Assembly: GCA_003990765.1 (NCBI GenBank)
Contig: RBNJ01000170.1
Span: 1 to 38,097 of the forward strand
Direction: 5' to 3'
Length of the DNA: 38,097 nt
DNA from: Jimgerdemannia flammicorona
Taxonomy: Eukaryota
The position numbers were made by a program, and so were the translations under genes. Below are positions 3,001 to 36,733 of this stretch, piece by piece. The notes under the pieces are model-generated. The model did not search any database, was not told the DNA's origin, and saw only the letters and a program-made list of their open reading frames with translations. Position 1 is the stretch's first letter. Every line of letters begins with the position of its first letter.

Positions 3001-3332
3001 CTCTCAGCTAGGCAATAGCATGATTCAACAGTCAAAGGGTTTCACCCAGGCCTCTTTTATACTCCCTACACCAACCTACTCCTCCAATGTCTGATATCTC
3101 CAATGTCCCTCATCCCCTTTTGAACCAGAATGCCCACCTGCCCAGTCCATACCACTGCCCCTCTCCATTCTCTAGTCCAGTCCTGTAAGTCTATGTCTTC
3201 CTCATAATATATATTCTACAGTAAGAAAAGATCTACATCCAGTCCCTTCAATCAGCTAAATATATTCCTATACTGCACTACTCCCCTCAGCCCATTCACA
3301 TTCAAAGAAAAGATTCTAGTTGTACTATTCAT
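1..3332 (-). pseudogene. LINE A ORF2 (AP endonuclease + reverse transcriptase), many stops
   Basis: Starts MNSTTRIFSLNVNGLRG; contains LGGDFNMV, KGTAPGEDRL, LLQGDPLSLILYALSLEPL, VGAFADN and SSAKLNWHKCE. Confidence 0.93.
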
Positions 3333-3363
3333 ATTGAATAATGTTTGATATGGAGAACTCAAC

Positions 3364-5215: not shown

Positions 5216-5374
5216 GCTACCAGTTGAAGGCACTGCTTCCCCCCTGGCTGATATGCTCACCAGTACATTCATTGCTGTCCATGTTACTAGTCTTCTTTCA
5301 CTAAAACATTATAGAAAAGTGTTGTCTGAGTCTTGTGTCACCTGAATGTTACTGGTGAAAGGTACAGACAATTA

Positions 5375-6045
5375 TCAAAAACTGGCTTCATTTGTATAAA
5401 GTTATATTGAGAACTGGCTCTACTACAAAGTTACATCAGATAGACTAACTTGTAGTAAGATTTATATAGTAGGCTCTCTAGGAAAAGCAGATTCTTCTCT
5501 GAGAAATAACTCAGGTTCTTCTCTTGACAAAGTTACATTAAGACTGGCTTCATTTGTATGAATAAGTTTATTGTGAAGTTGTGTCAAAAGACTGGTTTTG
5601 TAGTAAGATAGCAGACTTCTTGAAAATGATGGCTCTTCCTTAAGCAGTAGATTTACTCAAATTCTTCAGACTTATATGGTAAGTATATCAATCAATCTTT
5701 ATATTGGAAAGTAGACTAGAGTAGAAAGAAAAGCTATTGCTTTAGATTCAATTTTGGACTAAGATTTATTCACTCATATCTCTGGAGTATTTAATACAGT
5801 TATAGTTGCTATCTGATTGCTATCTGGTTAATTATAGAATATGCAGTATAGCTAAATATAATATATGACTTCTATTGTACCCTCAGAGTACAGTACCTTC
5901 AAGATACAGTGCCTTTGAGATTCAGTATCTCAATTTGAATATTTGGTACTATTTATATAGTTCTATAGCAACTAGATAACTATGAGGGTAACTATGATAT
6001 ATAGTCATATCATCTAGATATCTAATACTTATGTTGCATATCACA
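5375..6045 (-). repeat. 3' LTR of gypsy A, partial (about 600 bp missing on the LINE A side)
   Basis: Collinear with 15537-16213, differing mostly by transitions; ends ...CATATCACA versus ...TATATTACA. Confidence 0.92.
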
Positions 6046-6768: not shown

Positions 6769-8167
6769 TTTATTTTTTATTTTATTTTATTTTTTTCTCA
6801 TTTATTAACTATCTATAACATACCACATATCCTTATACAACATCAGTAGCCCCATTCCACCCCAATCTCAACCCACCTTCACACTTACTCAGTCTTGCAC
6901 CTTTAGGGTATAAGTTGCAACCTCACTGCCTGAGTAACTAGATCCTCCTATCTAGCCTGCCCTACCCAAGAGTGAGTATGGGTTGTGAGCTCCAACCACC
7001 TCAAGTACTTGGCATCTAGTGCACCTGACCTACCCCTATTAGTGCCTTCTGTCTTGCCTGTTTTACCTGTCTTGCCTGTCTTGCCCATCTTGCCTGTCTT
7101 GCCCATCTTACCCATCTTGCTCATCTATATTACCCATGTTGCCTGTGTTGCCATCTTGCCATCTTGCCCATCTTGCCCATCTTGCCTGTCTTACCTATCT
7201 TGCCCACCTTGCCCATCCATATTACCTGTGTTGCCCATGTTGCTCATATTGCTCATATTGCCTGTATTGCCTGTTTTGCCTATTTTGCCTATCTTGCCTA
7301 TATTACCTGTCTTATCATCTGCCCATCTTACCCATGTCACCTATCTTGCTATCTTGTCATCTTGCCCATCTCACCCATATTGCCTATATTGCCTATATTG
7401 CCCATATTGCCCATATTGCCCATATTGCCCATGTTGCTTATATTGCCCATGTTACTCATATTGCCCATATTGCCTATGTTGCCTGTGTTGTCTATGTTGC
7501 TCATGATGCCCATGTTGTCCATATTCCCTGTATTGCCCATGTTGCCCATATTGTCCATGTTGCCTGTATTGCCCATGTTGCCCATGTTGTCCATGTTGCC
7601 CATATTGCCTGTATTGCCTATATTGCCTATATTGCCTATATTGCCCATATTGCCCATATTGCCCATATTGCCCATGTTACCCATGTTGCTCATGTTGCCC
7701 ATATTGCTCATATTGCCTATGTTGCCTATGTTGCCCATATTGTCTGTATTGCCCATATTGCCCATGTTGTCCATGTTATCCATGTTGCCCATGTTGCCCA
7801 TGTTGCCCATATTGTCCATGTTGCCTGCCTGTATTGCCCATGTTGTCTGTGTTGCCTGTATTGCCCATTTTGCCCATTTTGCCTGTTTTGCCCATCTTGC
7901 CATCTTGCCCATCTTGTCTGTCTTACCCATCTTGCCTATCTTGTCCACCCATATTGCCCATGTTGTCTGTGTTGCCTGTATTGCCTGTTTTGCCCATTTT
8001 GCCTATTTTGTCCATCTTGCTATCTTGCCCATCTTATCTGTCTTGCCTATCTTGTCTATCTTGCCCACCCATGTTGCCCATGTTACCTGAGGGTCCCCCT
8101 TCCTCTATACCATAGGGATTCAATTTCCACCCAGACCTTTTGACTGGTATGATTCAAGATAGAGATG
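6769..8167 (-). mobile_element. 5'-truncated non-LTR retroposon (LINE 3' end) inserted in gypsy A integrase
   Basis: A-rich tail on the minus strand at 6769-6796. 18-bp TSD: ATACTTCTCTAAACTAGT (6751-6768) and ATGCTTCTCCAAACTAGT (8168-8185). The integrase peptide LVWRS is duplicated on both sides. HLYLE..QKVW resembles an L1 ORF2 C-terminus. Confidence 0.85.
7041..8087. repeat. 9-bp minisatellite, consensus TTGCCCAT(A/G/C)
   Basis: About 1 kb of tandem 9-mers; variants TTGCC/TCACC/TTACC and CCAT/CTGT/CTAT. Confidence 0.97.
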
Positions 8168-14938: not shown

Positions 14939-16213
14939 TATAATATGCCCAGCTCAATGAAGGCAAATTATAAGATTAGGGGTTGATGTAGTTTGGCTTA
15001 AGCCCTCAGTTACTTTGTCAAAAAGCAATAAAATATTTTAAAATTCCTGAGATCCTTAGTATTTAGTGATATAATAGTTAAAGCTGGATATCTGTAAGCA
15101 ATTCTGGTAATTTCCTTATTGAGACAGTTTTTGGGTATAGTAGCAATTCTGATAATACAGATAATTTATATTAATGGTCTCTATGTAGTGTAGTGGTTTT
15201 CTTATATAATTTCTACATAACAATCTCTTTATGTAGTATAATGATCTCTGTATAGTATAATGGATATGTTATATAGGACAGTCTGACAATTTAGTAGTTT
15301 CCTTCTTGAGTAGTAGTGATCTCTATATAGCATAATAGGTTCCTAATGTGAATTTGATCAATAACTCAATTTGGATATAGATTCTTCTAAATTGGTAAGG
15401 TTTTTAAATAATAACTCAGATGGTATAGATTCTTTCTAAATCAGCAGACTTCTGAAAAATAACTTGGATAGTGCAGGTAATTTAGATAACTCAGATAACT
15501 TGAGTAGCTCAGATAGTAGGTTCTTGATAAGTTATATTAAAGACTGGCTTTGTTTGTATGGGGTTATTTTGAGGACTGGCTTCACTATGAAGTTGCATCA
15601 GATAGACTGACTTGTGACAATATTTCTATAGTAGACTCTCTAGAAATAGTGAATTCTTTTCTGAGAAATAACTTGGATTCTTCTTTTAGTAAAGTTATGT
15701 CAAGACTGGCTTTGTTTGTATAAACAAGTTCACTGTAAAGTTATATCAAAATACTGGCTTTGTAGTAAGATAGTAGACTTCTTGAAAATGATAGCTCTTC
15801 CTTAAGTAGTAGATTTACTCAAATTCTTCAGGCTTATCTGGCAAGTATATATATCAATCAATCTTTATATTGAAAAGTAGACTGGAGTGGAAAGGAAAGC
15901 TGTTGCTTTAGATTCAATTTCAGACTGAGATTTATTTACTCTTATCTCTAGGGTATTTTATATAGTTATAATTATTACCTAGATACTATCTGGTTAATTA
16001 TAGAATGCATAGTATAGCTAATTATAATGTGTGACTTCCACTATACCCTCAGGATACAATATCTTTGAGATACAGTACCTTTGAGGTTCAGTTATCTCAA
16101 TCTGAGTATCTGGTACTATTTATGTAGTTTTCACAGCAACTAGGTAACTATGAGAGTAACTATGATATGTGGTCACATTATCTAGATATCTGATACTTAT
16201 ATTATATATTACA
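14939..16213 (-). repeat. 5' LTR of gypsy A (~1275 bp) with internal AAGACTGGCTT sub-repeats
   Basis: TATAAT (decayed TGTAAT)...ATTACA inverted ends, adjacent PBS, homology to 5375-6045. Confidence 0.9.
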
Positions 16214-16651
16214 ATATAAAGTCTCAAAAAAGGAATAATATATTATAATATAGAGTTAACTAAATTAATAATCTAATATCATATAAGGAGCTAATCTCAG
16301 AGCAAGAATAAAAAACAAAATAAAATAAATCCAAATCAAGATTAAAAAACATTCTGATTCCCTTCAGGGTCTCATATTTACTCTAAGATATCTGGCCTCT
16401 ACTTTGTTCTCCTCTATTACTTTTAGCCCCTTAGCTTTACTTTGAGCTTACTATAACTTACTTTGCTTGATCTCTACCTCTTACTCTTGCTCACTACTCT
16501 ATAGTCTGTAGATGTTTTTTAATTTTAATTTTGATTTATTTTATTTTATTTTTTATTCTTGGTCTAAGATTAGCTTCTTATATAATATTAGATTCTTAAT
16601 TCAGTTAGCTCTGTATTGTAATATATTATTTCTTTTTTTAAAACTTTATAT
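16214..16651. repeat. Inverted repeat, arms of ~140 bp with a ~160-bp spacer
   Basis: The reverse complement of 16214-16352 aligns end to end with 16512-16651; the left arm is cut by the gypsy A LTR. Confidence 0.92.
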
Positions 16652-16699
16652 TTATATATAAGGACTAAGCTTTTATATAGTAATAAACTATAAATATAC

Positions 16700-19600
16700 T
16701 TTCTGTCCTATTCTTTGTTTGTTTTGCTTTACCATCTTTCTTTTTTTATAATATTTCATATTTTCTTTAATACTGACTTTAGGTTTGGCCCCCTCACTCT
16801 CCCTATGGCTTCTAGTATGCTCTCTTTTTCTACTGGTATATTATCTGTCTCTAGGGACCCTATTACTTCTGTGGTTATAGATGAGGATCTTCCTCTTTCT
16901 TTTACTCTTCCTGTCTTCATTCTTATTACTATCTCATTTAATACCTATATGTCATCAATTATTTTCTCTCTCTCTCTCAATTGCTATTCTTCTAAATACT
17001 CTCTTCTCTCTCAATTTTACTCAGTTCTTATTCTCTTCTCTAAGAAGACTTATCTTTGTTATTATGTTGATACTATTGCTCTATTTACTATCAAATTTTC
17101 TGTTCTTACTGAGGACTATTGTCAAGTCTTCTCTAAAGAGGTTCATACTATCTCTGTTGCTACCAAAACTATTACTGCTGATACTATATATAATATTACT
17201 TCTACTGCTTCTCTCTCCTTCTACTAGTTCTATACTATATATGTAATCTTTATTGACTTTTATCTTACTGATACTACTCCTTTCTACAGTTTCTCTACTA
17301 ATGAGATCTTCTCTACTACTGCTAATATTAATACTATTCATTAATTCTTACTTATTAGTAGCTTCTTTCTTATTTGCCTCTATGAGTCTGAGGCTTCTTA
17401 TACTATCTCTATGGCCTATTCTACCTCTACTATACTTACCTCAGCTGCTTTCAAAATCTTTATCTCTGAGGCAATTCATATTGAAACTTGCACTACTGGT
17501 TTATATCTCTTTTACTATTGCTACTACTAAGTCTGCTAAGTTCTTACTAGTTCTCACATCTACCTGGACCTCATCAGTCTCTTCTCACTCACTCTTATCT
17601 ATCTTCAAGATCTCCTCTATCTCTAAACATATGTAGCTATATTCTTAGTGCCTACTCTATAGACTCCTGGTTCTATACTATCTGCTCTAGCTGCCTCTAT
17701 AGTATCTACTGGCACCCTATTAAGGCTTCTTGCCCATATAGTAGTCTCTCTTATCCTACCATCTCTGCTTTCTTCTCTAAGACCTCAGCATACTCTTACT
17801 CTCTCTCTATAGCATCTTCTACCTCCTTCTTCTCTTACTCTCTCTCTACTTATATCTCTGAGTATAAAATCTGTACTAGAGCTTACTGCTAAAAGGTCTG
17901 ATATTCTGACAGTATATACTCTTGCTCATCTATATTGTCTCTATCAAAAATAGTCTAAGAGAAGAAAAAGTTCTCCCAATCTTAAACTTTCACTTAGCTT
18001 AGTTCTCTCCCAATATTCTCTCTCATCTTCAATCTCATTGTTACTTCTAGTATACTCTGAGTAGTTCCCTATATTATCCCCTCTTTATCTTTCTCAGTTG
18101 CTTGTTCTGAATTTTCAGATTTACTCTTCTTCTGAGATACTTTTGTCTCTCTCTTTCTCTTGGGCTAACTACTCTCTTTTCTTCTATTCAAACCTTTGTA
18201 CTTTCTTTGAGTCCTTGTTTATCTTTCTGATAACTTGCTCTCAATTTTCCTTTGTCAACCCAACTTGTCTTAAGTATTTTTATTATACTCTTAACCTTAC
18301 TATCTCTTTAAAGATTATGCTGAAAAGCTCTCTCACTATTTTGTTTCTAGTGATTGGATCCTCTCTACTAATATCTCTTAAAACTATATATTTCTCACAT
18401 GGTCTGCTTACTGTCTACTTCTGAATATGCTCACTCTTATTTGGTTTCAGACTGTATCATATACTATACTTAAATTGATCAAGTAATTACCTTCATATTT
18501 ACTTATAGTCATTGATAAGAATTAAAGTTTTGTCCTCATTTCTCACTTGCTCTACCTTGATGACCTTTCTGTCCTCCTCTATGTCTCAGCTTATAAGTTA
18601 TACATATACCCTTGGATTGAATCATATTCTCTCTCTTCTTTGGGTTAAATTGACTCATATAGCCTTGCTCTCAGATTCTCCATTTATACCTCTTATTTTT
18701 ACATTCTCAGACTCTTTGTTCTTATCAGATATTCATCTCCTAGTTTTCTATACTCTTTCTAAAGTTCATAAGCCTATTTTGGCATAGTATCCTATTATGG
18801 CTGTCTTTTACTCACTAATCACTGAGATTTTGAAATAGTTATCTCATTTCTTTCTCTCTTGGATAGTATTGCTTCAACACTATCTTGGGCCTAAGTACAC
18901 TATTCTTTATAATATCCAGGAGCTCACTCTTCTTTATTCCACTATTATACCTATTATATATTTTTTCCATTTGGAATCTAGTGATTTTTCTTCCTTCTAT
19001 ATACTATTTATTTGATGAGATTAATGACTGTCTATACTTTCTTAGATCTATTATTTATTCTTTAGATTCTCTGATTTCTTTGATCTTAATTATTGAGCTC
19101 ACACTTCTCATCTACTGCTCTAACTACTTTGAGTTGGCCCTTAGCTCCTATTGTTAGGTTTCTGACATTACTATAAAAATGAATTATATATATCTTCACT
19201 CTCACTAATTCTATTGGCTTAGTCTATGAGCTTTATGTATTGATCCTTTTTTACTGCTCACTATTATCTTCCAGACTGATGATATCTTCTTCTATCATTA
19301 TATTGATGACTTCATTGTTTTCACTGTTTCTGGTCTTAATATCTCTACTATATTTCAGAGTATATACTCTTCTCATCATTCTATTATATAGGTTCTTAGA
19401 ATAATTTGTATTTTCTTTTTAAATCTTTCTATTTCTATTTCTTCTTTCTGAACTATTGTTTATTCTAAATTTTCCCATTCCTAACAGTTCTCTAACTATT
19501 ATTCCAATGATCTCTATTGTACTCTTTATGAATATACTTATAGTGAGGTTTGACATCTTGCTTTATACAACTTCTGTTATTCTGACTAGATGTCAGCTAT

Positions 19601-19920: not shown

Positions 19921-19994
19921 TTTTTTTTTAATCTATTACTTTTGTTTTATATTTTCATTACCTTCAGGTACCTTTGACTCTGCTGAAGAAGATT

Positions 19995-20472
19995 GAAAAA
20001 CATCCTGGTTCTCTCTGAGATCTCTCATTTGCTCTGAGATATTTAATCTTCACTTCACTTCTCTCTACTACCTTTGACCTCTTGACTTCACCTTAGGCTC
20101 ACTATAGCTCCCTTTGCTTAATCTCTACTCTTCACTCTTAAATCTGCTGATGTTTTTTAATCATAATTTAGATTTGTTTTGTTTTGTTTTTTATTCTTAC
20201 TCTGAGATTAACTTCTCATATGATATTAGGTTCTTAATTTGGTTAACTCTGTATTATGAATTTTTTTTTTTTTAGAACTTTATATTTATTATAAAGACTA
20301 TACTTTTGTATGATAATAAACAATAGATATACTTTTTATTCTATTCTTTACTCATTCTGTTTTACTACCTCCTTCTCTCTTTTATAATATCTTATATTTC
20401 CTTTGATACTGGCTTTGGATTTATCTCTCTCACTCTCCCTATAGCTTCTGGTATGCTCTATTCTTCTACTAT
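19995..20472. repeat. Diverged direct repeat of 16345-16835 (~480 bp)
   Basis: Collinear from AAAAACAT through GATGTTTTTTAAT and AACTTTATATTTAT to CTCACTCTCCCTATRGCTTCTRGTATGCTCT. Confidence 0.9.
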
Positions 20473-20985: not shown

Positions 20986-21374
20986 ACTTCCTTCTGAATA
21001 GGTGATTTGTCTATAAAAATATCCTATTCACTTGAACTTCCAAGCTTCTATGATTTGTATCTCCTTGTACTATGCAATTTGTATTATTATATTCTCCTAA
21101 TGGTATTTCTTAATATATTCAAAGTCTTCTGGGACTACTTCTCAGAAATGAGCTAAAGCTAACTCATTGTTTTTGAATAACTTATTAACTTATTTGGTAA
21201 TTGTAATCTGAGTATGAGAGAGCTGACACTCTCTGATTCAGTCTTTTTTTCCCATCTCTGGCCATAAGTTTAGTAGCTGTCTCAACTTGAAGTATTTTGA
21301 AACTTAGTCTGGTTCTAGTAGACCTTGAAATGTGAGATTTATAACAAGTATGTCTAGACTAGTGCTTGCAAAAA

Positions 21375-21720
21375 CCGAATTGAGTCAAATTGACTCTCAA
21401 TTCAATTCAATATAAACCAAATCAAGGCTCAATTTGATTCAACTTTCATTCGATTTGACTTTCATTTAGTTTGGCTTTTGTTTAATTTGATTTGGCTTTC
21501 ATTCAATTTCACCTTCATTTAATTTGACTTTCATTCAATTTGACTTTCATTCAATTTGACTTTCATTTGATTCAACTTTCATTTGGTTTGGCTTTTGTTC
21601 AATTTGATTTGGCTTTTATTTGACTTTTATTCAGTTTGATATGAGTTATATGACTTTCAGAATTATATGCTTTAAGGATATCCAAATCAAATTGATTTGA
21701 ATTGATTTGATTTGGTTCAC
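21375..21720. repeat. Left subterminal repeat array of the hAT (TTTCATTCAATTTGAC-type; inferred ancestral ATTCG units)
   Basis: Tandem ~16-bp units in which TTCAA, TTTGA and TTCGA alternate. Confidence 0.85.
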
Positions 21721-21767: not shown

Positions 21768-22134
21768 ATATTAACTATATCAGAGGAACCATTTTCACTA
21801 CTACCACTACTTATGGAAGATACTAGAGCAGCCTTGATATCAGTAGATACAACTTCAATAAGTACAAGTATAACCTCATTATAACAATCTAGTATAGAAA
21901 GAAGAAAAGAAAAAGGAAAAGGAAAACTATATGAATGCTCTGAGATCTAGAAAGAATTTATAAAGATAGACAAAAATGGTGAAACTAGAGTGAAATACAA
22001 TCACTGTTTAGTAACATATAAATTTGTAGATAGTTCAATAACAAATATCCAGGACTATTTTACTTGGAGCCATAAAGTTAAACAAGCAGAAGCAATGGAT
22101 TTATTTCTTTCACAAGTATTATTAATTCACTTTA

Positions 22135-22179
<45 letters not shown>

Positions 22180-24325
22180 CTATTTTATTCATTATTACTT
22201 AAAATTTTCTTATTATAATAATAGCCAAAATTCAATGTACAATTATTTCAAGAGAAGCTTATTTGCTGGATTATTCAAGATAATCAGCCTTTCACAGTTA
22301 TTAAAAATTCAGAACTAAGAGATATTTTTCACCTTTTGAAATTGGATATTACTATTCCTTCTGCTGGAATAATTTGAAATAAAATCAGATCAACTTTTGA
22401 ACAAAGTTGAAATACTGTCAAAATTAAACTATAGGTAAATCTTAATAGTTTGAATCTTAATTCAAATAATCCAAATTTAATTTAATTCTAATAATCTAAA
22501 TCTCATTTAATTCATTGGAAACTAGAATATACTAGGTTGAATATCCTACACTCTTGATACATAGACATCACTGAATATGCATATATTTCTTGGAATTAAT
22601 GCACATTGGATCTATCAGGATTGGTGACTCAATTCTATATTAATTGATTTTATTGAGCTGTCAGGATCTCACTCAGGTGAAAATCTTACTGATACCTTCT
22701 TGAAGTATATTAAAGACTTTAACATACAGACAAAGATATATATTCTTCAAAAAGAGTATTTTCATACTTTCAGATTATTGTTTGATATTTAAAAATTATC
22801 TTATATTTTAAATTATTTACTCTAGGTATTGGCTATAATAACAGATAATACTACCAACAATAATGTTTTATTTTGAACAATTCATAAGAAGTTTGATCAT
22901 ATCAGCCTAAACTATCCATTAATACAACATGTATGATATATGACTCATATCAATAATCTGGCTTTTCAGGCTTTTTTAACCTGTCTGAAGGCTGATCAAG
23001 ATACTGTTGATATAACTGAGGGTGGAGAAATTTCAAAACTTTGAATGATCATTATGAAGATTCAATTGTCTTTACTATATCAAGAGAAATTTGTTAAGAA
23101 GTGCAAAATATTTGGACTCAAACTGAAAGAACTTATTTTAGATGTTAAAACTTAATAGAATTTAACATATTCTATAATTGAGTGGGCCTTAGAATTTTCA
23201 GATATAAGTTTTTTATTTATTTTTAAATTTGATTCAAAATTTGATTCAAAATTTGATTCAAATAATCTAATAAATTTATTTTCTATAATATATAGCCTTT
23301 AACTGCAACTATTATTGCAGATAAAGACTTAAGAAAATATACTATTGGGAGCCATACTTGGGAAATATTAAAAGACACTATAGAAATTCTAAAAAGCTTC
23401 AAAATAGCAATAGATCTTGCTGCTCAAGAAAAATATCCAACAATCTATTCTACTGTTCTGATTTACAATTTCTTACTAGATATGTTGGAAAAGCATAACA
23501 AGAAGATTTGAAAAACTACAGATGAGTAATCGAATACTATAGGAGAGCAATTAAATACTACTAAAGAGCAATCAAATACTATTCATCTGGCACTAATGGT
23601 GGCTATTGATAAGTTGAAAATATATTATTCAATAACAGATATTCTAACTTATTATATTGGTACTAATAAGTAAAATTTTGAAACTCAAGAGCTATATGAA
23701 TTTTACATTTCAAATTTTTACATTTTCAATTTATTTTTCTTTAAATATACCAGTACTTGACCCCAGACTTAAACTATCATATTATATATCTCACAAATGA
23801 GAGTCTGAATGGGTTGAGGCTGCCAAGAGAGCTGTTTATACAACTTATGATAAAACCTATACCCCTCTCTCTGGATCAGTTTATCAAGAATGGTATAATA
23901 TTATAGATACTGAAATTGATGATATTGATGCTATATTACAATAACATATATTCAACAAAAGACAAAAACTGATGACAAATCCTGAGCACAAGATAGATAT
24001 TTATTTGAAAAGTAAAATTGTTGAATATCCAATAAGAATTGATATATTATCTTAGTGGCAAGTAAGTTGAGACTTTAATTTGAATCATATTTAAATCAAA
24101 TCATATTTAATTTGAATCAAAATATATTCAAAAACATTAGGGCCATTTAGAGATTTTCCAAATCTAGTAAAAATAGCATGAGACTATTTAGCTATCCCAG
24201 AAACAAGTGCTCCAATTGAGAGAATCCTTTCTAATGATAGGGATCTTATATTACTTAAAAGAGGTACTTTAAAACCTGAAATAATTTGGGAATATATGTG
24301 TTTAAAGGCATGATAATCAGCCTAG
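21768..24325 (+). pseudogene. hAT transposase with BED finger and six introns, inactivated
   Basis: VKYNHC...SH (BED), WIIQDNQPFTVI, ISYTLDT*TS (first Asp), AIITDNTTNN (second Asp), LILDVKT**NLTY, ILDPRLK, YLAIPETSAPIERILS (catalytic Glu / dimerisation region). Confidence 0.95.
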
Positions 24326-24404
24326 TGCTAGCTAATCCCAAAATCTCGAAATATAACTATTTTTATATAATTAAATTGAAATACTTATTATAAAATCCCT
24401 CTGA

Positions 24405-24750
24405 TATAGTGCTTTGAAAGTAGGTACTTTAAAGCTTAATATATAGTAGGTACTTTAAAAGTGAGCACTTCAAAAGCTAAAGATATGGTAGGCACTTTGA
24501 AAGTAGGGTGGATATTGTCAGGGTGGATACTTTGAAAGTGAGATGAATGTTGTCAGAGTACTATAGATGTGTTCATGGGTCATGGGAATTATGATGAGAG
24601 TTATATTGAAAACAGAAAGCTTAAGATATGGCAAGTGCTTTAAAAGCAGGTAATTCAAAAGCTTAAGATATAGCAGATACAGATACTTTGAAAGTACAGA
24701 CACTTTGTGAAAGTGGGCACTTTGAAAGCTTAAGATATGGCAGGCACTCT
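24405..24750. repeat. Internal motif array (GGCACTTTGAAAG and AAGCTTAAGATATGG units)
   Basis: About ten imperfect copies of RCTTYRAAAG interleaved with AAGCTTAAGATATRG, lying between the transposase and the second ORF. Confidence 0.85.
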
Positions 24751-24833
24751 AATCTAAAATATATAAATAAGTACTTCTGATGTGAAAATTTCTATAAAAA
24801 AAAACCTCTTTCTCTCCCTACATCAATATTTAT

Positions 24834-25526
24834 ATATTTATTAAAGATCTTATCAGAGCATTGCAGAAAATAAATCAGAGAATCCATAAAGTCTCCAGCC
24901 AGCTTAATAAAGGAAACAAGTCTAGAGTTGAATATAAGAAAATAAGAATGAAGATTACTAAGGTGATTCAAGAATTCAATCTAGATATAAACAAAGCATT
25001 TGAGGCCAAACCCACTGTCACTACTATTGATCTAGACATAGATGAAGTATTTGAGACTGAACCCACTACTACCACTACTACTACCCCAAATGCTGCTACT
25101 GCTATTGCTGCCACTACCATAGCCCCCAATGCTGCCACTGTTATAGCCTCCAATGCTACCACTCCCAATGCTGCTGCTATTGACATTTCAGACTCAGACA
25201 TTGAAGTGGAGGATAATATGCTCACCAATACTACCACCATTGAGATTTTGGATTCAGACATTGAAGTGGAGGTTGATGATATATTTGAAATTTCTGATAA
25301 TGATACTCCAGACATTGTAATTTTGAGTGATGAGAAGGTTCTGGTTCCAAAAAGAGGTCATCCACATACCAGTTGCTATAATTGTAGATGATATGGAAAG
25401 AAATATAGGATAATACCTCGAATCTGTCAGAAGATCAACCCCTTGACTCTGAATCTTTCTCTTCAAAAAAGAGTATACAATAATACTTATCAGGTAGCAG
25501 TAGCTAGATATAAGAGAAATTGTTAA
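24834..25526 (+). pseudogene. hAT passenger gene: basic helical N-terminus, Thr/Ala linker, multiple SIM-like motifs, Cys-rich C-terminus
   Basis: 231 codons with a single internal stop (TGA at 25389, revertible to CGA). Likely start ATG>ATA at 24834. TATA-like motifs at ~24762 and ~24793; AATAAA at ~25565 and ~25593. Confidence 0.65.
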
Positions 25527-25599
25527 TAGCCTGTATCATTGATAGCCTAGCCTGTATTATAATTAATAAATTTTTTGTAACATTATTATTTGAATAAAG

Positions 25600-25810
25600 C
25601 CTTCATTCAATTCAACCCTAATTAAATTGAGGCTCCATTTGATTCAACTCTAATTGAATTGAGACTCCATTTAATTCAACCCTAATCAAATCAAGGCTCT
25701 ATTCAATTCAACTTCCATTTGATTCGACTTCCATTCAACTTGAAAAAATCTCAATTTGATTTGACTTTTCAGATCTCCTATTCAATTCAACTCAATTTTA
25801 TTTGATTTAT
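25600..25810. repeat. Right subterminal repeat array of the hAT
   Basis: Repeated ATTCAATTCAAC / ATTTGATTCGAC units like those at the left end. Confidence 0.85.
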
Positions 25811-25952
25811 TTGTGAGCACTAGTCTATACTATACTCTAGATACTATTAAAGAATTCTTCTATGATTGGCAGTTCAGTAGTGTACTATTGTCTTTCTATA
25901 GCTCATTGTATAGCACTAGTGATCTTGAGGGCTGCAGTAGTACTTCATCAAT

Positions 25953-28900
25953 TAGCCATGATACTTCTTTAGTCAGTTTTGATAAATAGTAGTAAAGATG
26001 ATTGTACCTGAGAATTTTCATAGCCAAAAGATGGTTCTTTTTATATCTTGCACCAAGTAAGGTCTTTCCTACTTAGGCTTCAGCTTTTGTGACCATAAAG
26101 CTTTTACTATGTTCTAATATACCAGAACTTTATCTTCTATCTTGATAATCTCTAGAGGCTTGTGAATTTTTCTGCATTATTCTATTATAGTACCTGTGCC
26201 TTGGTTATGTAATCCTCAACCTTCTTTCTAATTTGGTATAGTCTCTATATCTTTGTGTCTATGTATTTCCATATAGCATCTCTATTGGACAATAAGCTTT
26301 CTTGAGAACTTTTTTCTCTAAACAGTATCTCTCAAGAGGTAAAATAGGTACTTTGTGATTAGATATTTCAGAGAGCAGATAATGCTATTGGCAGATAGTG
26401 ATCCCAGTTTTCATAGTTATTACAGATCTTAGTGATAATATTCTTGAGAGTCTTATTAATTCTTTTTGCTTGTCCATTTCTCTAAGGGTGATAGGCTGTA
26501 GTCCAAATGTGCTGAATCTTATACTTTTTATAGACAATCTTAAAAAACTGGTTCACAAATTCTATTCCTCTGTCTATAGTTATTTATGATAAAGTCTTGA
26601 ATTAGCAGATGATTTCTTTGTAGAAGAAATTGGCAATTGACTGTACATTGGCTTCTTTGAGAGATCCTGTCTCTATCTATTTCATGAAAAGGTCTACAAT
26701 GACAATGATGTATTGGTTGTCAGTCAAAGTCAAGGGTAGAGAGCCAATTACATCTATTGCAATATATGCAAAGGGTACTAATTCTATATGTACTGATCTG
26801 GGGGTTTGATTTTATTAGTCTTGTTTCTGTTTCTAACATTTATCACAGATCTTGACAAATTGTCTGATATCTTTCTCTATTTCTGGCCACCACATTGTTC
26901 TTCTTACTTTATCATATATGTTTGTTCCTCTTAGATGGCCAAGTTTGTGAACTGATTTCATTACTTGCTCCTTCTTATATTTAGATATAACTAGTAGCTT
27001 TCTCTTTTTTAGTATTTCTCCATCAGTCTCAAATTGTTTCCATATTCTATAGATAATCATTTGTATTCATTCTGCCAGATATTGAGATATCTTTCACTGT
27101 CCCAGATAGTATAGTAAAGTTTCTTATTCATAGTTAATTTGCTAGTTAGGAGTTCTTTGGGATATCTATAAAAGAGTATCTGTATTGGCATTAGTTCTTC
27201 CAGAGTAGTGTACAATAGTTATGTTATAGTCTTACAACTTCATTATCTAACTAGTATAGATTCCTTTTGATTGCTCAGTAGTCAGTAGTCAAGTGAGGGC
27301 TGAGTGATCTGTCTGAATGGCAAAGTGTCTTCCCACAAGATAGTAGTAGAACTTCTCTATAGCCCAGATAACTGCAAGACTTTCCAACTTGTAGGATTCA
27401 TACTCTTTTTCAGCTCCTTGAATTCCTCAGCTAAGATATGTGATTATATATTCTACTTTGTCTATCTTCTCAACCAGAACTACTTCTAGTCCTTGTATAC
27501 TTACATCTGTCTATAGGATAAATTCCTGAGTCCAATCTGGTCTTCTGAGAATGGGTGCTTAGATCAGTCTGATCTTGAGCTCATCAAATACTTTCTGTTA
27601 TCTACTGGTCTATTGGAACTTGACTTCCTTCTTATTGAGTTTATATATTAGATCTGCAATATTGGAGAATTCTTTGATAAATCTGCAGTAGTAAGAGGTG
27701 AGTCCCAGAAGACTTGGACTTCAGTAACTATGATGGGCCTTAGGTATACTACTACTGCTTGAATCTTGAGAGGGTCTATATATATTCTATCTTAGTTAAT
27801 AATATGGCCAAAATAAGAGATCTTGATTTCTGAAAACTTGTACTTCTTGGGCTTGATGTAAAGATTATACTTCCTTAGCTTCTCTATTATCTGCTGAATG
27901 TACTGCAGATGTTCCTCATATAAATAATAATATTATCTACATAGACTATCATCTATCTTCCCATATTATAGTAGAAGATTTTGTTTATCATTTACTAGAA
28001 GCTTGCTAGTATGTATATTATACATTCTGAATAGTATTTATAGGTAGACATAGGTTCTGTCTGGAGTAATGAAGGCTGACTTCTCACTTGCTGCTTCTGT
28101 AAGGCTAATTTGATAGAATCCTGAATATATGTCTAAGATGCTATAGTACTGTGCTTCATCTCCTAAGATTACAAGGATATCACTGATGAGGGGTAGTGGC
28201 TGACAATTCTTCTTAGTAATCAGATTGAGCTTTCTGTAATTGGTGTAGAGCCTTGGGGCAAATTCTCCTAGCTCTTTCTTTTTTTGAGACTAATACAACT
28301 GGTGAAGCCCAGGAGCTGTAGGCTTCTTTAATGATACCAGCTTCTTCTATCTGCTTGATTTCTTCTCTAAGCTATTCATAGTAGACTAGTAGTATTGGTC
28401 TTACTTTTTAATAGATTGGTTTAATGTCCCCTATATCTATATTATGATAGTAGTATAAAGTCTTTTTCTTAATATCCTTGAAGTCTGTGGCTAGGATATC
28501 CTTGAATTTGTAAAGTATCTTCTTGAGTTTCTTTTTGAGTGAGAATTCATCTTCAATGATATAGCTATACTTTTTGTAGTTTCCTCCTTCTTATAATCTA
28601 GTTTGGTAATCTTGGTATTGGTGAATACTCCTCTTTCTATAGATCTAAATCCTTTCTTTCCTCATTCTGTTTCCTTCAACTTTTTGACTTCTATGATCTT
28701 TGGCTGAAGAACTGGAAAGATCAACATCTGTACCAATCAGTCCTTCTTCTTGATTGGAAATGGAATCATAGAGTTGTAGTTTCTAGCAATAAGTAGTATC
28801 TCTATAATATAATCTAAATCAATAACTTCTCCTTCAATCATAATCTCACTCTTAGCCAGGCTGCTTCTTATCTTGAGAATCCCAACATGGTCTTTTGGAA

Positions 28901-29760
28901 TGGTCATCTCTAGACCAGTTGTCAGAAGAGCAGTTGTCTGGGGTTCAAGTACAGTTTCTTCTACTATAGTAATATTTATTTCAGCTATATTCTCTAACTT
29001 ATATTGGTAGAAATGTATCAGAGTGAATTTTTTGAATCTTGATATTGATTTCTTCTTCATCATCACTGTCTTCCAGGAGGACTGATAGTTTATCATCCTC
29101 TTCCTTCTCCTTATCTTTTCTTGTCTGCTTTTCAAGAGCCTTCTGTCTTTTTTTATAATAGATCTTCTTGATACTGCTAGTACATTAGTAGCAATCATTG
29201 ATATACTCCATACAGTACATCTTGATTCCATGGGGGCAGACTCCTTATAGTATATATCTTTCTGTGATCTTCTTGCACCAGTCCTCTCCACTAATTTATC
29301 CAACTTTCTTCTTCTTTTTCTGAATAATCACTATATAGGCTTCTTTTTGTTCACTTTCTTCTTTCTCTATCTCAGACAGCACTCCTTTATTGATATTGAT
29401 GGGAATTCACATCTTCAGGGCATTTAGGTTGATTATTACTCTGACTTTATAAAGTCACTGGTTGCTGATAAGGATGTCATAGTTGGTTATATTAGTTACA
29501 ATCATATCTACTGTGATTATTACTCCTCTGAACTTGATGGAAACATCCTGGATCTTTTCTAGAGGTGTGGCTCTTATATCATCTACTGTGATAAATATTA
29601 ATTTGGTTGCTTCTTCAATCTCCCAATCTAGGCAGTCTGCTGCTTTCTTACTGAGGAGGCATTCTCTTACTCTAGTATCAATGATGGCTTTGAGATTCTA
29701 TCTCCAATCTAACAGATTGCATAGAGAGAGATTGCAATTGTCTTCACTTTCTTCTCTAGA
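25953..29760 (-). pseudogene. gypsy B pol (PR, dUTPase, RT, RNase H, integrase)
   Basis: KAIIDTRV (protease), SSWASPVV, YTNYRKLN and VYVDN (RT), LYTDVS (RNase H), HKLGH...ICDKC (integrase zinc finger), IAIDVIGSLP, KLKPK*ERPY. Confidence 0.93.
28640..28990 (-). pseudogene. dUTPase domain of gypsy B pol
   Basis: LLTTGLEMTIPKDHVGILKIRSSLAK, GEVIDLDYIIEI, LVQMLIFP, ETE*GKKGFRS. Confidence 0.92.
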
Positions 29761-31259: not shown

Positions 31260-34200
31260 CTCTGTTCACAGATCCCTTCTACCAGATGGCAATGTCACTC
31301 ACTCTGGGGACTCCAACCAATCCACCACCTGGTCAACAGATTTCCCATCAATCTCTCCCATCTCAATAACTTCTCCTATATATCCATCTACCACTCCTCC
31401 TCAAAAACAAAGAGCCAATATCCAGTTAGCCCTACCTATATAGCTAAAACTCACCCTACAGTGAGCCATCTATGCCTACACCATCCACTAACCAAGATTT
31501 CAAATCCTCCCAGTGATCTCTCTCTCTATCTAGTCTCCTCTCCACACTCAACTAGATCCCTACCACTATTCAAAAGTCCCCCAGAACCTCATACTCTCCC
31601 AGCTAATATTCTGGCATCTGCACAAATCCTCCAACTTGCTCTATATTATAACACTCCTCACAATCTAATTAACCACTATCCACTAGATGTCTAGCACAGA
31701 AATTCAACATAACATTCCTCTGCAGCATCCACTACCATACTACCCAAAACTTGGGAGGAAGCCACCTCTGTACTTCAGTACTCTATGACTAGACTCCTGC
31801 CCAGTCCCACTCCTCACCAATTCTCACTGCCTGCCAACTACTTGGCCATAGATTCTGACCAAGTCTCTACTGACATTCTACTCCTTCACCAATGTCAAAC
31901 TCAGCAAGTGGAATACCCCCCAGAAGTAGTTGGTCCCATTGCTATATAGCTGGACTCCACAGCATCTCTCCCTCATTGCTTTATCAGTGTAGGCCTATTT
32001 AGTGTGCTCCATCTACCACCCCCCACCAGAAGCCCTTATACTATAGCTGTTGGCTTCCATCCAGACTCACTAGAAATAGCAAATCTTCCAAGGACCCTCT
32101 CAGGGAGAATCTCATCTCCCACATCTTCTGCATCAGAGGTACCCAATCCCCTCCCTGAAATTCAACAGCCCTTTTCAACCACCAAGCTTGCAGATAATGT
32201 AGCTGCTTAGGAAAATCCACTAGGCCTAGCCCTTCCTGAACCACTGGTGTTGCAAGAGTATCCCAACTGATCTGGGACCACCTCCCTACCCAAATCCAAT
32301 CTCTAGCCAGTTTCATCAGTCTCTTCACCACCCAAGCTAGAAAGTCCAAATAATAAGCAACATACCATAGCCTGGGGAACCAGTAGACATTCAGGATCGA
32401 TACCTGGCCTGCTAGGGAGATGTGGCAACCTCCCCAACCTCTAAGAGCCTCCCCCCAAATGGCCACTCTCTTCTCTCACCACACTCATGGCAAGACAGAA
32501 CTATATACAGAGAGGAAGATGCCCAGATATCTCACTGCCTCTCCTGTAGGGACAATTGTTCCAATGACATCTCCTCCTACTAGTCTGTTCTCTAACACCA
32601 TTGTCTCACACTTATGCTAGTTGAGTTTTACCCCAGAGTGTGCCTTGTACCATTCCACTATCTCCTGAAGTATCGCTATATCTGCCACTGAGCTAAGTCC
32701 AACTACCATATCATCTGCAAAGGCCCCCACCTTCTATACTACACTATATACAGAGAGCCCTGCTACCTTCTGCCATATCCTATCCATCAAAAGTTCTAAT
32801 GAAAGGGCATAGAGGATAAGAGACAGTGGGTCTCTCTGAGGAACTTCTCTTCCCAAGGAGAATGCCAGACCCTGGTGACTATTATACATTAGTGCTGTCC
32901 TACTTCTCTCCAACAGATTCAATATAGAATTTCTAAATTATGGGGGAACACCAATTTTATCTAGTACCTTGCCTAGCCACACCTGTCAAACATGGTCATA
33001 GATCTTTTCCTGGTCCAAAAAGACCAGTCTCCCATCCAATCCACAAGCCCTTGCTCCTTCAATAATATCATGAACTCAGGCAGTCCCATCTCTGATAAGC
33101 CTGCCTCCAACAAAGCCCCACTACTCCTCATCCAGTACTTGTTGGGCAACCTTCTGTAGCCTCACAACAATTACCTTAGTCACCATCTTCCTATCCATAT
33201 CCAGAAGCATAATTGGCCTCCAGTTCTTCCAATCCTCTCTCCTTCCCTTGTCTTTATACAATAAGGCCACCAGCCCTAAGTCCTACTTACCAACCCACCT
33301 GCTATTTAGAAGAACATGATCACAGAGGGCTGCCATCTCTCCTAACACTCCAGGGACCCTTGCTATCTTCTTCCAAAAGTCCCAAGATAGCCAAGCTTAG
33401 TTGCCACCAGGACTCCCTGGATCTCCTCCTCTCAGACTAGTAGTATCAAGTCTTCAAGGTCTTCTACCAGTGGTGGTTCCCATTTCTCCAATGTGTCACC
33501 AATTTCCCCCACATCTGTACCCCCTTCCTCCTCACTCCACAGACCCCTCCACTTCTCCTTCAGTACTCCCAAGATCTGTTGCATACCATGCACTATTTCC
33601 CCCTTGGCATCAAGGATTCCATTCCATCGATGTCACACTCTCTTGGCTTGGAGAAGTCTTGACAAGTACCTAGTAGGCCTCTCTCCTTCCTCAAGCCCCT
33701 GCCACTTAGTCTGGCAGTCATTCCTTTCATATGAATCTCTTTCTCTTCTCTCAAAACCTGTTGTAGCTCCACTACCTCCAATTTCACTTACTCTAACCTC
33801 TAATCCCCCATCTCTTCAGAAGAAATCAAATTAGCCCACTCCATCTGTAATCTAAACAGCCTATTAAAAGCACACCTTACTCTCTTCCTTCTCTGCCTCC
33901 CAGCCTCCCTACCAGCTTCTCTTCAATAAACCCTCATGGCCTCCTTCAACCTCATCCAACAAACATCCACAGATGTACCTTCATATATCCAGCTAGTCAT
34001 CTTTACTTAGATGGCCTCTACTTATGGGTCTCACAATATCTTCTCAGCCAGCAGGGAGAAGTTAAGGTGCCAATGTCTGGGTCCATCTCTACTCTCTCCA
34101 AACTGTCCCTCCAAACATCTACACCCCAGTATTCAGCAGTCAGAATCCAGTCAATCCTTATACTCAGTCCATTCACCCAGTGTGTGTAAACTCTCTTTTT

Positions 34201-34748
34201 GCCCCACCATGTTCTGCCCATATCTCCCAAGGAGCTGAGGTTCTCTACCTCCTCTCAGGTATTCAGACCACTACTCCTCTCACCTGCACTCCTCTCTCCA
34301 TCAGTTCTAACTGTGGATTCTGTACCATATTAAAGTTACCTTCCAGGACATCCACTCCTTCCTCCAAAAGAATATTCTCCTCCAAAAGATCCTGAACCCA
34401 TTCAATCTGCTTACTCCTAGCTGTAGGGCAGTAGCAGGAGTCAACTCTCACTGGTTCCCACCCAGGTTGATGCCATTCTCCTCAGACCAAACAGTTCCCC
34501 CAGCTCCTGATTCCACCCAAATCTCCTCTACCCCTCCTCACCAGAATCGCCACTTTGCCAATCCAAGCAGTAGCTCCTTCCCACTCTCTAGTCCACTCTA
34601 CCTAATCCTCCTCATTCTCATACTGTATATTCTGCAGTAAGAAGAGATCAGCCTCCAATCCCTTAAGCCAAGTAAAAATGTTCTTATATCTCCCAGATAC
34701 CCTTAACCTATTCACATTTAGAGAGAAAATATTAGTTATACTGTTCAT
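31260..34748 (-). pseudogene. LINE B ORF2 (AP endonuclease + RT)
   Basis: MNSITNIFSLNVNRLR, LEGNFNMV, SIRIDWIL, VPQRDPLSLILYALSLE, VGAFADD, ISLAGQVSILNVYWFPRLWY, QEGLGLVD. Confidence 0.93.
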
Positions 34749-34778
34749 AAGGAATAATGTTAAAATCAATCTCATCCT

Positions 34779-36733
34779 CTACAAATCTGCATTCAACTCC
34801 TCCTATACCAAGTCCAAGTTGTGTTTAGTGGCTAGTTCCTTTTCTTCAGCTGTCTTTGCCTTCAGCCCGACCAGAAGTTCAGCCATCTCTCCATTCTCTT
34901 TTTCCTCGAAGTCCTTATGATACTTCAGACATACCTCCTGCCAGAGTTGCAAACCATGATGCTCTGCCCAACAATAAGCAGCCTGCTCACCAGCAACAAC
35001 CACCAGCTCAGCCTCTCTCTCCTTATCAATCTCATAACCCTCTTCCTTCAGTAAGATCACCAGTACCTCTGTCTTCAGTGCCTCTACCATCCCATCTCCA
35101 TGTAGAATCCTCACTCAATACTCCTCACTTATCACTCACAAGTCCACTTCTCCCAACTCCTCAGCTGCGAAGTTATTCATCATCTTGCTCATCCACAGCA
35201 GATTTCTCACCTTCTTCCCTCTAGGCATCTCTGGCCTTCCTGTATCCAGTATTGTGGTATCTGTAGTCTCATCCCACCCCTTCTCTGGGACATCCACCAG
35301 CTCATCCTCACCAACTGCCATCACCTTTCTACTCTTCATCATATCAGGAACCCCAAAGTGCACCCTTTGAGTGCCCCACATCAGCACATCTTCTACTGCC
35401 CACCCCCTCGCAGCTGGACCTCACCTGACCAGAGGGAGAGTATTGCCCAAGACTGGTTCCCAGACCTCGAACATACCATCAGCATATGGATCCTTGTGCA
35501 GTACCTTCCCAGCCCCTCCCAGGCCCTCCTCTATATCTCCTCCTCCCTTACTGGCCCAGATACTTGCCTCCACACTCTCAGACTTTTCAGTGCCCTCAGC
35601 CTTCATCTTTTCTCCTCTATTTATGCTTGCCAGTAGCTCTCTCTGTCTCTTGTACTCCTGAGCCCTCTCTCACTGCCTCTTGGCAGTGCATATATATTTC
35701 TCATTAACAATCTTTAGATGTATTACCTCTACATACAACTTTCAGGTCTTTGCTCTCTGCTCAACAGCATTACTCAACTCCTCTAGAGCCTCCAACAAGT
35801 CCTCCTCCTCCTTCTCACTCTCTTTCACCCTCGATATCTTACAGACAAAAGCCCCCCACATCATCACTGAAGGCCAGTCACTAGTCTTCCCCATGGCCTC
35901 CCTCCCAGCCAGTCTAATCCTGATACATATCTATATCTTCCATCCTGAAGGTAGTTCCCTCTCACATCTGGAAACTGATATTGACCACATCACCATACTC
36001 TGCCATCACCTCCTCCACCCTTCTCTTAGTCTCATCCTTCATCACCATAAGCACCCTCTTTACCAGTAACTACACCATCCTGGGGTCTCATCTCAAGCAC
36101 CATACTATAGGGACCACTATCTCTCTTACTGCCACTCCAGACCTCAAAGTCTCCTCCAATAGGCCTGCCTCCTCGAAGCCCACCTCCACTCTCTTCAACC
36201 CCTTCAGGAACTTCACTGAGACTGCTCCAGCCACCTACTCTGATATAAGCCCCAGAACCATTCTGCCATCACTGCCAAGCCCCTGAAGCACAAGGTTACA
36301 GCAAACTCTAAAATCAACTTCTTGAGTAATGGTGCCACCACTAGCCCCATCACATCATCAGCCAGGTTCCCCTTCTGCTTTAGGTCCATCTGCCCAGCCC
36401 CCCCATCAACAGTCACATCTGGATTTTTTTCCAGATTCTCAGTTATGCCTCCATCAGCAGTCCCACCACTACTTCCAGTAGCTACTCCATTAGCTCTATC
36501 TCTCACCAGCTGAGGTCCAGTACCTTCAGCTTCCCCAACCTTCTGCTTCCCCTTCCCTTCTGCCTGCCCACTCTGTATTCCCACCAGCCAACCTCTAGCC
36601 TGCAGCATGTCCACAAAGCTCCTCCCCTTCTGCCCTCTGGTCTCACCACCAGTGCTGCTTCTACTGTCTGAGCTGCCCTACCCACTCAGACCACCAAAAG
36701 ACCCCATCCCAAGCCCATATCCTTGTATAACAT
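34779..36733 (-). pseudogene. LINE B ORF1
   Basis: Homologous to LINE A ORF1 (LEKNPDV, LADDVMGLVVAPLLK, DWPSVMMWG, conserved C-terminal block). Confidence 0.8.

Follow-up and report, generated by a model that had tools for sequence, protein, structure and literature searches.

Remnant of a second gene with conserved SUMO-interacting-like motifs in a decayed hAT transposon of Jimgerdemannia flammicorona

Introduction

Some DNA transposons are known to carry two genes. PIF/Harbinger elements encode a Myb-like ORF2 protein next to the transposase, and CACTA elements encode TNPA and TNPD. The VANDAL elements of plants, which are Mutator-like elements (MULEs), encode VANC, an anti-silencing protein that binds specific DNA sequences and works through methylation loss, not through SUMO. 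To our knowledge, hAT is not among the two-gene superfamilies. Here we describe a second open reading frame (ORF2) in an old, decayed hAT transposon of ~4.5 kb, located in a 38,097-nucleotide stretch of the Jimgerdemannia flammicorona genome (GenBank assembly GCA_003990765.1, contig RBNJ01000170.1, positions 1 to 38,097 of the forward strand; hereafter the window). Within the element, ORF2 follows the transposase on its right-hand side and is read from the same strand; its product bears motifs that resemble SUMO-interacting motifs (SIMs).

Proteins that read SUMO through tandem SIMs include RNF4, yeast Slx5 and subunits of the fission-yeast Rfp1/Rfp2 type, all of which belong to SUMO-targeted ubiquitin ligases (STUbLs). 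Excerpts of two reports connect SUMO conjugation in animals and fungi with heterochromatin formation and with the silencing of transposons (10.1101/2022.08.15.504007; PMC8131101). DNA viruses overcome intrinsic silencing with the help of SIM-bearing proteins, of which ICP0 is an example (excerpt of PMC3174244).

Results and Discussion

A full-length homolog of the second frame

The original prediction described a 231-codon frame with a single stop, placed inside the terminal inverted repeats (TIRs) and 3′ of the transposase, and this is borne out by translation and by the repeat search. On the + strand, 24834-25526 reads as 231 codons with one internal stop, a TGA at codon 186, and a TAA at the end. 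From stop to stop the frame extends over 24798-25526 (+), with 197 open codons, the TGA at 25389-25391, 44 further codons and the TAA at 25524-25526.

We searched the 197-residue ORF2 product with HMMER phmmer against 1,835,955,588 representative proteins, with no limit on length, and a single match with E ≤ 0.001 was found. This protein, here called P0001, is an unnamed JGI protein of 218 amino acids from one contig of 1000 bases (E = 5.6×10−13, 65.6 bits; ORF2 residues 10-197 on P0001 residues 8-174). P0001 extends 44 residues past the point that matches the ORF2 stop, and the peptide encoded after that stop (~43-44 residues), which was outside the query, is identical with the collinear end of P0001 at 18 of 31 positions (58%, E = 3×10−10). 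Over the whole length the two sequences share 41% identity with zero frameshifts. This fits a long history of coding constraint; unconstrained DNA that had diverged so far would not stay open. The earliest in-frame ATG of ORF2, at 24948, falls well within the P0001 protein when aligned, and the native start codon is gone.

24798..25526, + strand: ORF2 pseudogene, collinear with P0001 throughout; native start codon lost
25389..25391, + strand: premature TGA of ORF2, opposite Arg175 of P0001 in the alignment

ORF2 thus derives from a genuine protein-coding gene, which was small (~220 codons) and without introns, and the copy in the window is a dead one, a pseudogene that lacks its native start, has acquired one premature stop and has lost one Cys. 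ORF2 defines a protein family with two database members so far.

Could the frame instead be open by chance, in low-complexity, triplet-repetitive DNA that holds no gene? The middle of ORF2 is built from 3-nt and 24-nt repeats, the frame is poor in stop-prone codons, and the opposite strand of the region is also open for 129 codons (24968-25357); the repeats and the open opposite strand make the length of the frame alone not decisive. When 24798-25526 was shuffled 2000 times by mononucleotide and read in six phases, an open frame of 197 codons never arose (mean 69, longest 180). What refutes a chance origin is the homology with P0001, a full-length collinear homolog found among 1.84 billion proteins, together with the independent match of the tail outside the query, and we regard this explanation as extremely improbable.

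A second relative was retrieved when P0001 and a two-sequence profile were used as queries: in ~5.8 billion clusters (length classes covered), only P0001 and a protein here called P0002 were matched. With just two relatives in so many clusters, a conserved host gene is unlikely. P0002 is 93% identical with P0001 over residues 105-174 of the latter (70 residues), and its predicted product stops at the same CYNCR. Taken as a diverged copy that ends early, P0002 indicates that the source of P0001 has more than one copy, partly decayed.

The first ~72 residues of P0002 are the C-terminal end of a bacterial Mutator/IS256-type transposase (Transposase_mut, PF00872, E = 1.7×10−27), and this half gives the sole Pfam match above the cut-off in P0002. 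The transposase part meets the P0001-like part inside a Thr run, and the join is most likely a chimeric assembly across a low-complexity repeat.

No further relatives were found in the other collections. A word-indexed protein search with the 197-aa ORF2 sequence gave 409 candidates, none with E ≤ 0.01; the ESM Atlas gave no usable match for whole P0001 or for its residues 160-218; and in metagenome (two scans), viral and genome contig collections, no DNA encoding a relative of ORF2 was confirmed by tblastn.

The TATA-like and AATAAA signals that had been ascribed to ORF2 are present as hexamers (24760, 24793, 25565 and 25593), yet each kind occurs at ~1.6 per kb across the hAT element, and for this reason they carry little weight as evidence.

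The element around the second frame

That ORF2 sits in a hAT was proposed earlier, and the TIR pair, the subterminal repeats of the element on both sides of the frame and a Pfam dimerization domain in the transposase all agree with it. An inverted-repeat search detected the TIR pair as 21-nt arms with 86% complementarity, and the right end repeats nt 1-15 of the left TIR with 2 mismatches. Members of repeat families D2 and D3 occur at both ends of the element. Moreover, a 60-nt inverted pair (I1, 21380-21439 / 25620-25679) lies in the subterminal regions.

21352..21372, + strand: left TIR of the hAT, core TAGACTAGTGCT from 21355 (21-nt inverted pair, pattern search)
21380..21720, no strand assigned: left subterminal repeat field, 16-nt period, ~12 copies at 21442-21639 (TRF)
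21951..24310, + strand: hAT transposase remnant, seven exon-like pieces from by-eye three-frame translation
21951-22115, 22225-22431, 22541-22735 and 22826-23197, + strand: transposase pieces 1-4
23296-23667, 23753-24061 and 24140-24310, + strand: transposase pieces 5-7
24152..24307, + strand: hAT C-terminal dimerization domain (PF05699), residues 818-869 of the frame from 21701
24318..24332, + strand: TIR-like site (uncertain), 2 nt past the transposase stop, with 3 mismatches against nt 1-15 of the left TIR
24410..24748, no strand assigned: repeat field between the transposase and ORF2, near-palindromic ACTTTRAAAG cores, families D6 and D17
25590..25810, no strand assigned: right subterminal repeat field, TRF periods 32 and 64, members of D2 and D3
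25810..25830, − strand: right TIR of the hAT (inverted-repeat and pattern search)

Over its 597 codons the transposase remnant carries 15 in-frame stops; no frameshift is obvious within its pieces, the limits of which are a by-eye reading made without the support of an aligned transposase. The PF05699 match scores 28.5 bits, above the cut-off of 21.4 (E = 1.3×10−6). It was the only Pfam model matched when Pfam was searched at E ≤ 0.1 with three read-through frames of this stop-ridden remnant; neither a BED-type zinc finger nor an RNase-H-like core was found. By eye, the remnant retains motifs that we take to be typical of hAT transposases. Outside the TAGAC...GTCTA ends, the two 8-base stretches (21347-21354 and 25828-25835) are unlike each other, and the element is old and heavily mutated. 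A run of 43 T bases lies at 22137-22179, within the apparent first intron of the transposase.

The field upstream of ORF2 contains near-palindromic ACTTTGAAAGT cores in loosely tandem repeats, with copies 35-185 nt apart. The field may serve as a promoter or as an array of protein-binding sites.

ORF2 may instead be a one-off passenger, a small host or orphan gene captured by this hAT copy, or joined with it in a composite; it would then play no part for the element, and its function, whether or not it involves SUMO, would be unrelated to transposition. hAT elements are normally single-gene, and no second copy of the hAT or of ORF2 was found within the 38-kb window. The TIR-like site at 24318-24332, just past the transposase stop, could mark a composite; as a real TIR it was rejected, since 1.14 such sites are expected by chance per window at 3 mismatches, and to the right of it the kind of repeat field that marks the left end (21380-21720) is missing. 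Cargo genes are known from fungal hATs, as excerpts describing ToxhAT tell (PMC6737239, PMC12506042). ToxhAT is similar to the present element in having a non-transposase gene within hAT-type TIRs in a fungus; according to the same excerpts, it differs in being 14 kb long and in encoding a secreted virulence effector, where here a 4.5-kb element encodes one small, probably nuclear protein, and the cargoes are unrelated. The homologs also speak against a passenger. ORF2 is a complete gene collinear with P0001 and not a fragment, two relatives in all of ~5.8 billion clusters are unlike what a conserved host gene would give, and the source of the relative has at least two diverged copies, one of which ends early. 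A passenger origin is, on this evidence, somewhat unlikely.

SIM-like motifs conserved at three positions

The six motif strings named in the original prediction (TIDLD, AIDISDSD, TIEILDSD, IEVEVDD, IFEISDND and IVILSDE) are all present in the ORF2 translation, as is the CYNC...VYNNTY tail. According to an excerpt of PMC8616421, a SIM has a four-residue core of the form hXhh or hhXh (h = I/V/L) with an acidic or phosphoserine flank. We searched with a regular expression derived from that consensus, in which three consecutive aliphatic residues were also allowed and an acidic or Ser/Thr flank was required. Two motifs in ORF2 follow the consensus, IEIL-DSD (25236-25259) and IVIL-SDE (25311-25334), and three do so in P0001: IVIS-EE, VLEL-SDTDD(D) and IMVI-SSDKE. 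Three or more were reached by only 18 of 5000 composition-preserving shuffles of P0001.

25176..25199, + strand: AIDISDSD, opposite the first P0001 motif IVIS-EE, with Asp in the core and two aliphatic core residues only
25236..25259, + strand: TIEILDSD, SIM consensus hXhh with acidic flank, opposite VLEL-SDTDDD of P0001
25311..25334, + strand: DIVILSDE, SIM consensus, opposite IMVI-SSDKE of P0001

A cluster of SIM-like motifs is thus conserved between ORF2 and P0001 at three aligned positions. About six such motifs had been counted at first, which was too many: TIDLD, IEVEVDD and IFEISDND are off the consensus, and of the three positions shared with P0001, two are still canonical in the window. 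Part of the motif excess in ORF2 is due to a 53-nt direct repeat at 60-nt spacing (D9, 25165-25217 / 25225-25277), one arm of which contains TIEILDSD.

SIM clusters usually lie in disordered regions, and the motif region of P0001 (residues 67-177) is predicted to be disordered in an AlphaFold2 model (block pLDDT 32-47). Validated SIMs offer a further comparison. In Daxx the SIM is IIVLSDSD, the serines of which are casein-kinase-II targets (excerpt of PMC8616421), and in HSV-1 ICP0 the SIM named SLS-4 is IVISDS (excerpt of PMC3174244). The motifs IVIL-SDE, IVIS-EE and IMVI-SSD resemble both of these. A protein of the ORF2 type may therefore have bound SUMO.

Cysteines and basic residues at the C-terminus

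The four Cys of P0001 follow the pattern C-x2-C-x6-C-x6-C. ORF2 keeps the first, second and fourth of them, and the third has become Tyr at 25404-25406.

24828..24974, + strand: region of ORF2 aligned with the N-terminal helical hairpin of P0001 (residues 9-56); coordinates approximate
25374..25427, + strand: Cys motif region, with Cys, Cys, Tyr (25404-25406) and Cys in the window
25464..25523, + strand: basic tail, QKR ... AR.KR conserved with P0001 in the last 20 residues

It had been proposed that VYNNTY in the tail would become VCNNTC by reversion of two G>A changes, and that the protein ends in a DNA-binding zinc finger. P0001 contradicts the reversion: VYNNTY aligns with AYDNSR, in which the first Tyr is an invariant column. 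The zinc finger as reconstructed in this way is not supported. The conserved Cys lie elsewhere, in a pattern that fits no Pfam zinc-finger model and is modeled with low confidence. The four-Cys tail alone gave no Pfam match even at E up to 10, and a PDB sequence search with it returned two rows only (E = 1.6 and 2.5), which we judged meaningless.

Three known Cys folds were considered for the tail and rejected. A RING finger has eight zinc ligands; the tail of P0001 offers four Cys, which are preceded by the sole His of the region (H165), and Pfam shows no RING at E ≤ 10. The CCHC zinc knuckle has the spacing C-x2-C-x4-H-x4-C; in the tail no His stands at the required spacing after Cys 2, and no Pfam zf-CCHC was matched. 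The fungal Zn2Cys6 domain has the spacing C-x2-C-x6-C-x5-12-C-x2-C-x6-8-C; there are four Cys in P0001 and three in the window, so that Cys 5 and 6 are absent, and Pfam gives no Zn_clus match at E ≤ 10.

The resemblance to the Zn2Cys6 domain of the Gal4 type suggests another explanation, in which ORF2 encodes a transcription regulator of the element, with an acidic activation domain formed by the acidic and hydrophobic repeats and a DNA-binding Cys4/basic tail that would act, for example, on the upstream ACTTTGAAAGT repeats. C-x2-C-x6-C-x6-C equals the first four Cys of Zn2Cys6 and is followed by a basic stretch, and five exact ACTTTRAAAG cores, where 0.22 would be expected per window, are clustered at 24452-24728. 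These cores are copies made by duplication within tandem repeats, however, and their count is not one of independent events or sites. The lack of Cys 5 and 6 in both ORF2 and P0001 and the absence of Zn_clus or any other DNA-binding match in Pfam at E up to 10 speak against a regulator as well. Furthermore, aliphatic I/V/L residues followed by S-D/E fit the SIM consensus, whereas aromatic residues tend to be abundant in activation domains. We consider it very unlikely that ORF2 encoded such a regulator.

The basic tail has the invariant columns Q200 K201 R202 ... A213 R214 K216 R217, in a spacing reminiscent of a bipartite nuclear localization signal. At the other end of the protein, the AlphaFold2 model of P0001, which was built from a 2-row alignment and has a mean pLDDT of 48.8, is usable for the N-terminal hairpin alone, where helices at residues 9-36 and 40-56 reach block pLDDT 68-79. 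A wide fold search with this model returned only generic helical hairpins (best Z 7.5), below a meaningful level, and barely probed the rest of the protein.

Mode of decay and selection

The CpG observed/expected ratio is 0.06 over the 38 kb of the window, 0.07 in the hAT and 0.04 in ORF2, and the TpA ratio (0.84-0.96) is not raised. The decay of the window is thus the signature of methylated-CpG deamination. Repeat-induced point mutation (RIP) as the mutational process was rejected on the same values, TpA being at 0.84-0.96 and CpG at 0.06-0.07. The earlier description in terms of G>A changes, taken as RIP-like, holds only in part: the loss of CpG is extreme, and no RIP signature accompanies it. 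The same pattern of CpG loss is described for a gigabase rust genome (excerpt of 10.1101/2025.05.29.656941). The premature TGA opposite Arg175 is what CpG decay would produce, since a single C-to-T transition in the CpG of CGA yields TGA. Even on a modest reading, ORF2 illustrates the killing of transposon genes by CpG decay in a genome that shows no RIP signature.

ORF2 bears one stop where 6.1 are expected at the per-codon rate of the transposase (Poisson P = 0.016). This difference depends on codon content: only 9 codons of ORF2 can become stops by a transition, of which 1 was hit, compared with 47 in the transposase pieces, of which 15 were hit, and at the transposase rate the probability of at most 1 hit in 9 such codons is 0.16. 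The caveat already attached to the original prediction, that near-intactness is no proof of selection, is therefore sustained after correction for stop-prone codons. The evidence of past constraint on ORF2 is the homolog, not the scarcity of stops.

A possible role for the protein

We tentatively prefer, at somewhat less than even confidence, the reading that ORF2 was an element-carried gene for a nuclear, multivalent SUMO-binding adaptor, which helped the element against silencing or in its choice of chromatin. The ancestral protein, judged from P0001, would have had an N-terminal helical hairpin, a long disordered linker, the Cys motif and the basic tail. Within the linker, which would be acidic and rich in Thr, Ala and Pro, three SIM-like units would each present an aliphatic core followed by Ser, Asp or Glu. 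As a nuclear adaptor, the protein could bind SUMO or poly-SUMO conjugates multivalently through these tandem motifs, and its Cys/basic tail could serve nuclear import and perhaps the binding of nucleic acid or zinc. By acting on SUMO-dependent chromatin, a protein carried by the element may have blunted silencing of the element or steered it to SUMO-rich chromatin. Of all this, the remnant of the gene, its place within the hAT and the conservation of the motifs are shown; binding to SUMO, a location in the nucleus and any advantage for the element are inferred. A more specific version, in which an autonomous hAT of a CpG-methylating fungus encodes a small nuclear reader of poly-SUMO that has three phospho-SIM-like motifs followed by a Cys4 motif and a basic tail, and that counters or exploits SUMO-dependent heterochromatin, appears quite unlikely.

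Several results weigh against a SUMO-binding adaptor. At least two SIM motifs are reached by 453 of 5000 composition-preserving shuffles of ORF2, so that the count in the window is not unusual. The Cys tail is modeled as helices and not as a zinc knuckle (block pLDDT 43-58), and no Pfam family was found above the cut-off with the ORF2 frame plus its tail, with P0001 or with the P0001 tail alone. A single genomic copy of the element is in view, with no second hAT that carries ORF2 and no family consensus, and the genomic context of P0001 is limited to its 1000-base contig. An 8-bp target-site duplication was not recognized by eye at the hAT ends, where decay could have erased one. The near-intactness of ORF2 is uninformative on selection after insertion, as stop-prone codons are few. 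Moreover, the consensus for SIMs is a degenerate one, and many of the SIMs predicted with it turn out not to be real (excerpt of PMC8616421).

Among described SUMO readers, the ORF2 protein resembles the tandem-SIM type in being small, in having several motifs of an aliphatic core with Ser/Asp/Glu in disorder, and in having a Cys-containing C-terminus after them. In contrast to the RNF4 and Slx5 STUbLs, ORF2 and P0001 have no RING, have four Cys only and show no sequence homology; without a RING, the ORF2 protein is not a ubiquitin ligase of the RNF4/Slx5 family. Like VANC, ORF2 is a second, non-transposase gene on a DNA transposon that could act on host silencing. It differs in that it lies in a hAT and not in a MULE and that its host is not a plant. 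The pairing of a transposase with a second protein gene in one TIR pair is shared with PIF/Harbinger and CACTA elements, but ORF2 lacks the Myb/SANT domain of PIF/Harbinger or any other known accessory domain (Pfam, E up to 10).

A limited keyword search of the literature turned up neither a description of hAT as a two-gene superfamily nor one of a SIM-bearing accessory protein in a hAT, which is weak evidence for novelty. If a SUMO-binding role were true, it would mean that transposons too target the SUMO pathway, in this case by a multi-SIM protein of their own on a cut-and-paste element. Such a protein would be the transposon counterpart of SIM-bearing viral anti-silencing proteins such as ICP0, and it would represent a new class of accessory gene for hAT, a superfamily thought to be single-gene.

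Neighboring repeats in the window

The hAT sits amid a pile of other repeats. Directly to its right is the remnant of a long terminal repeat (LTR) retrotransposon at 26836-29327 (−), recognized in a Pfam scan of seven stop-free open reading frames of the window by the following two domains.

26836-27066, − strand: integrase H2C2 zinc-binding domain (Pfam, E = 2.8×10−13)
28740-29327, − strand: dUTPase domain (Pfam, E = 5.2×10−8)

A ~5-kb repeat is present as two collinear direct copies, 84-4948 and 31571-36465, with 64-70% identity; these have a GC content of ~47% and a strong C skew, and bracket the AT-rich block that contains the hAT. Two further pairs of direct repeats, 15535-16213 / 5373-6045 (83% identity) and 16338-16834 / 19989-20470 (76% identity), could represent LTRs or else copies of other elements that were nested into one another. 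At 6976-8143, long open frames of up to 366 codons occur in several phases on both strands. They are rich in Leu, Pro, Cys and His. Since short tandem repeats give rise to them, they have the look of repeat DNA and not of genes.

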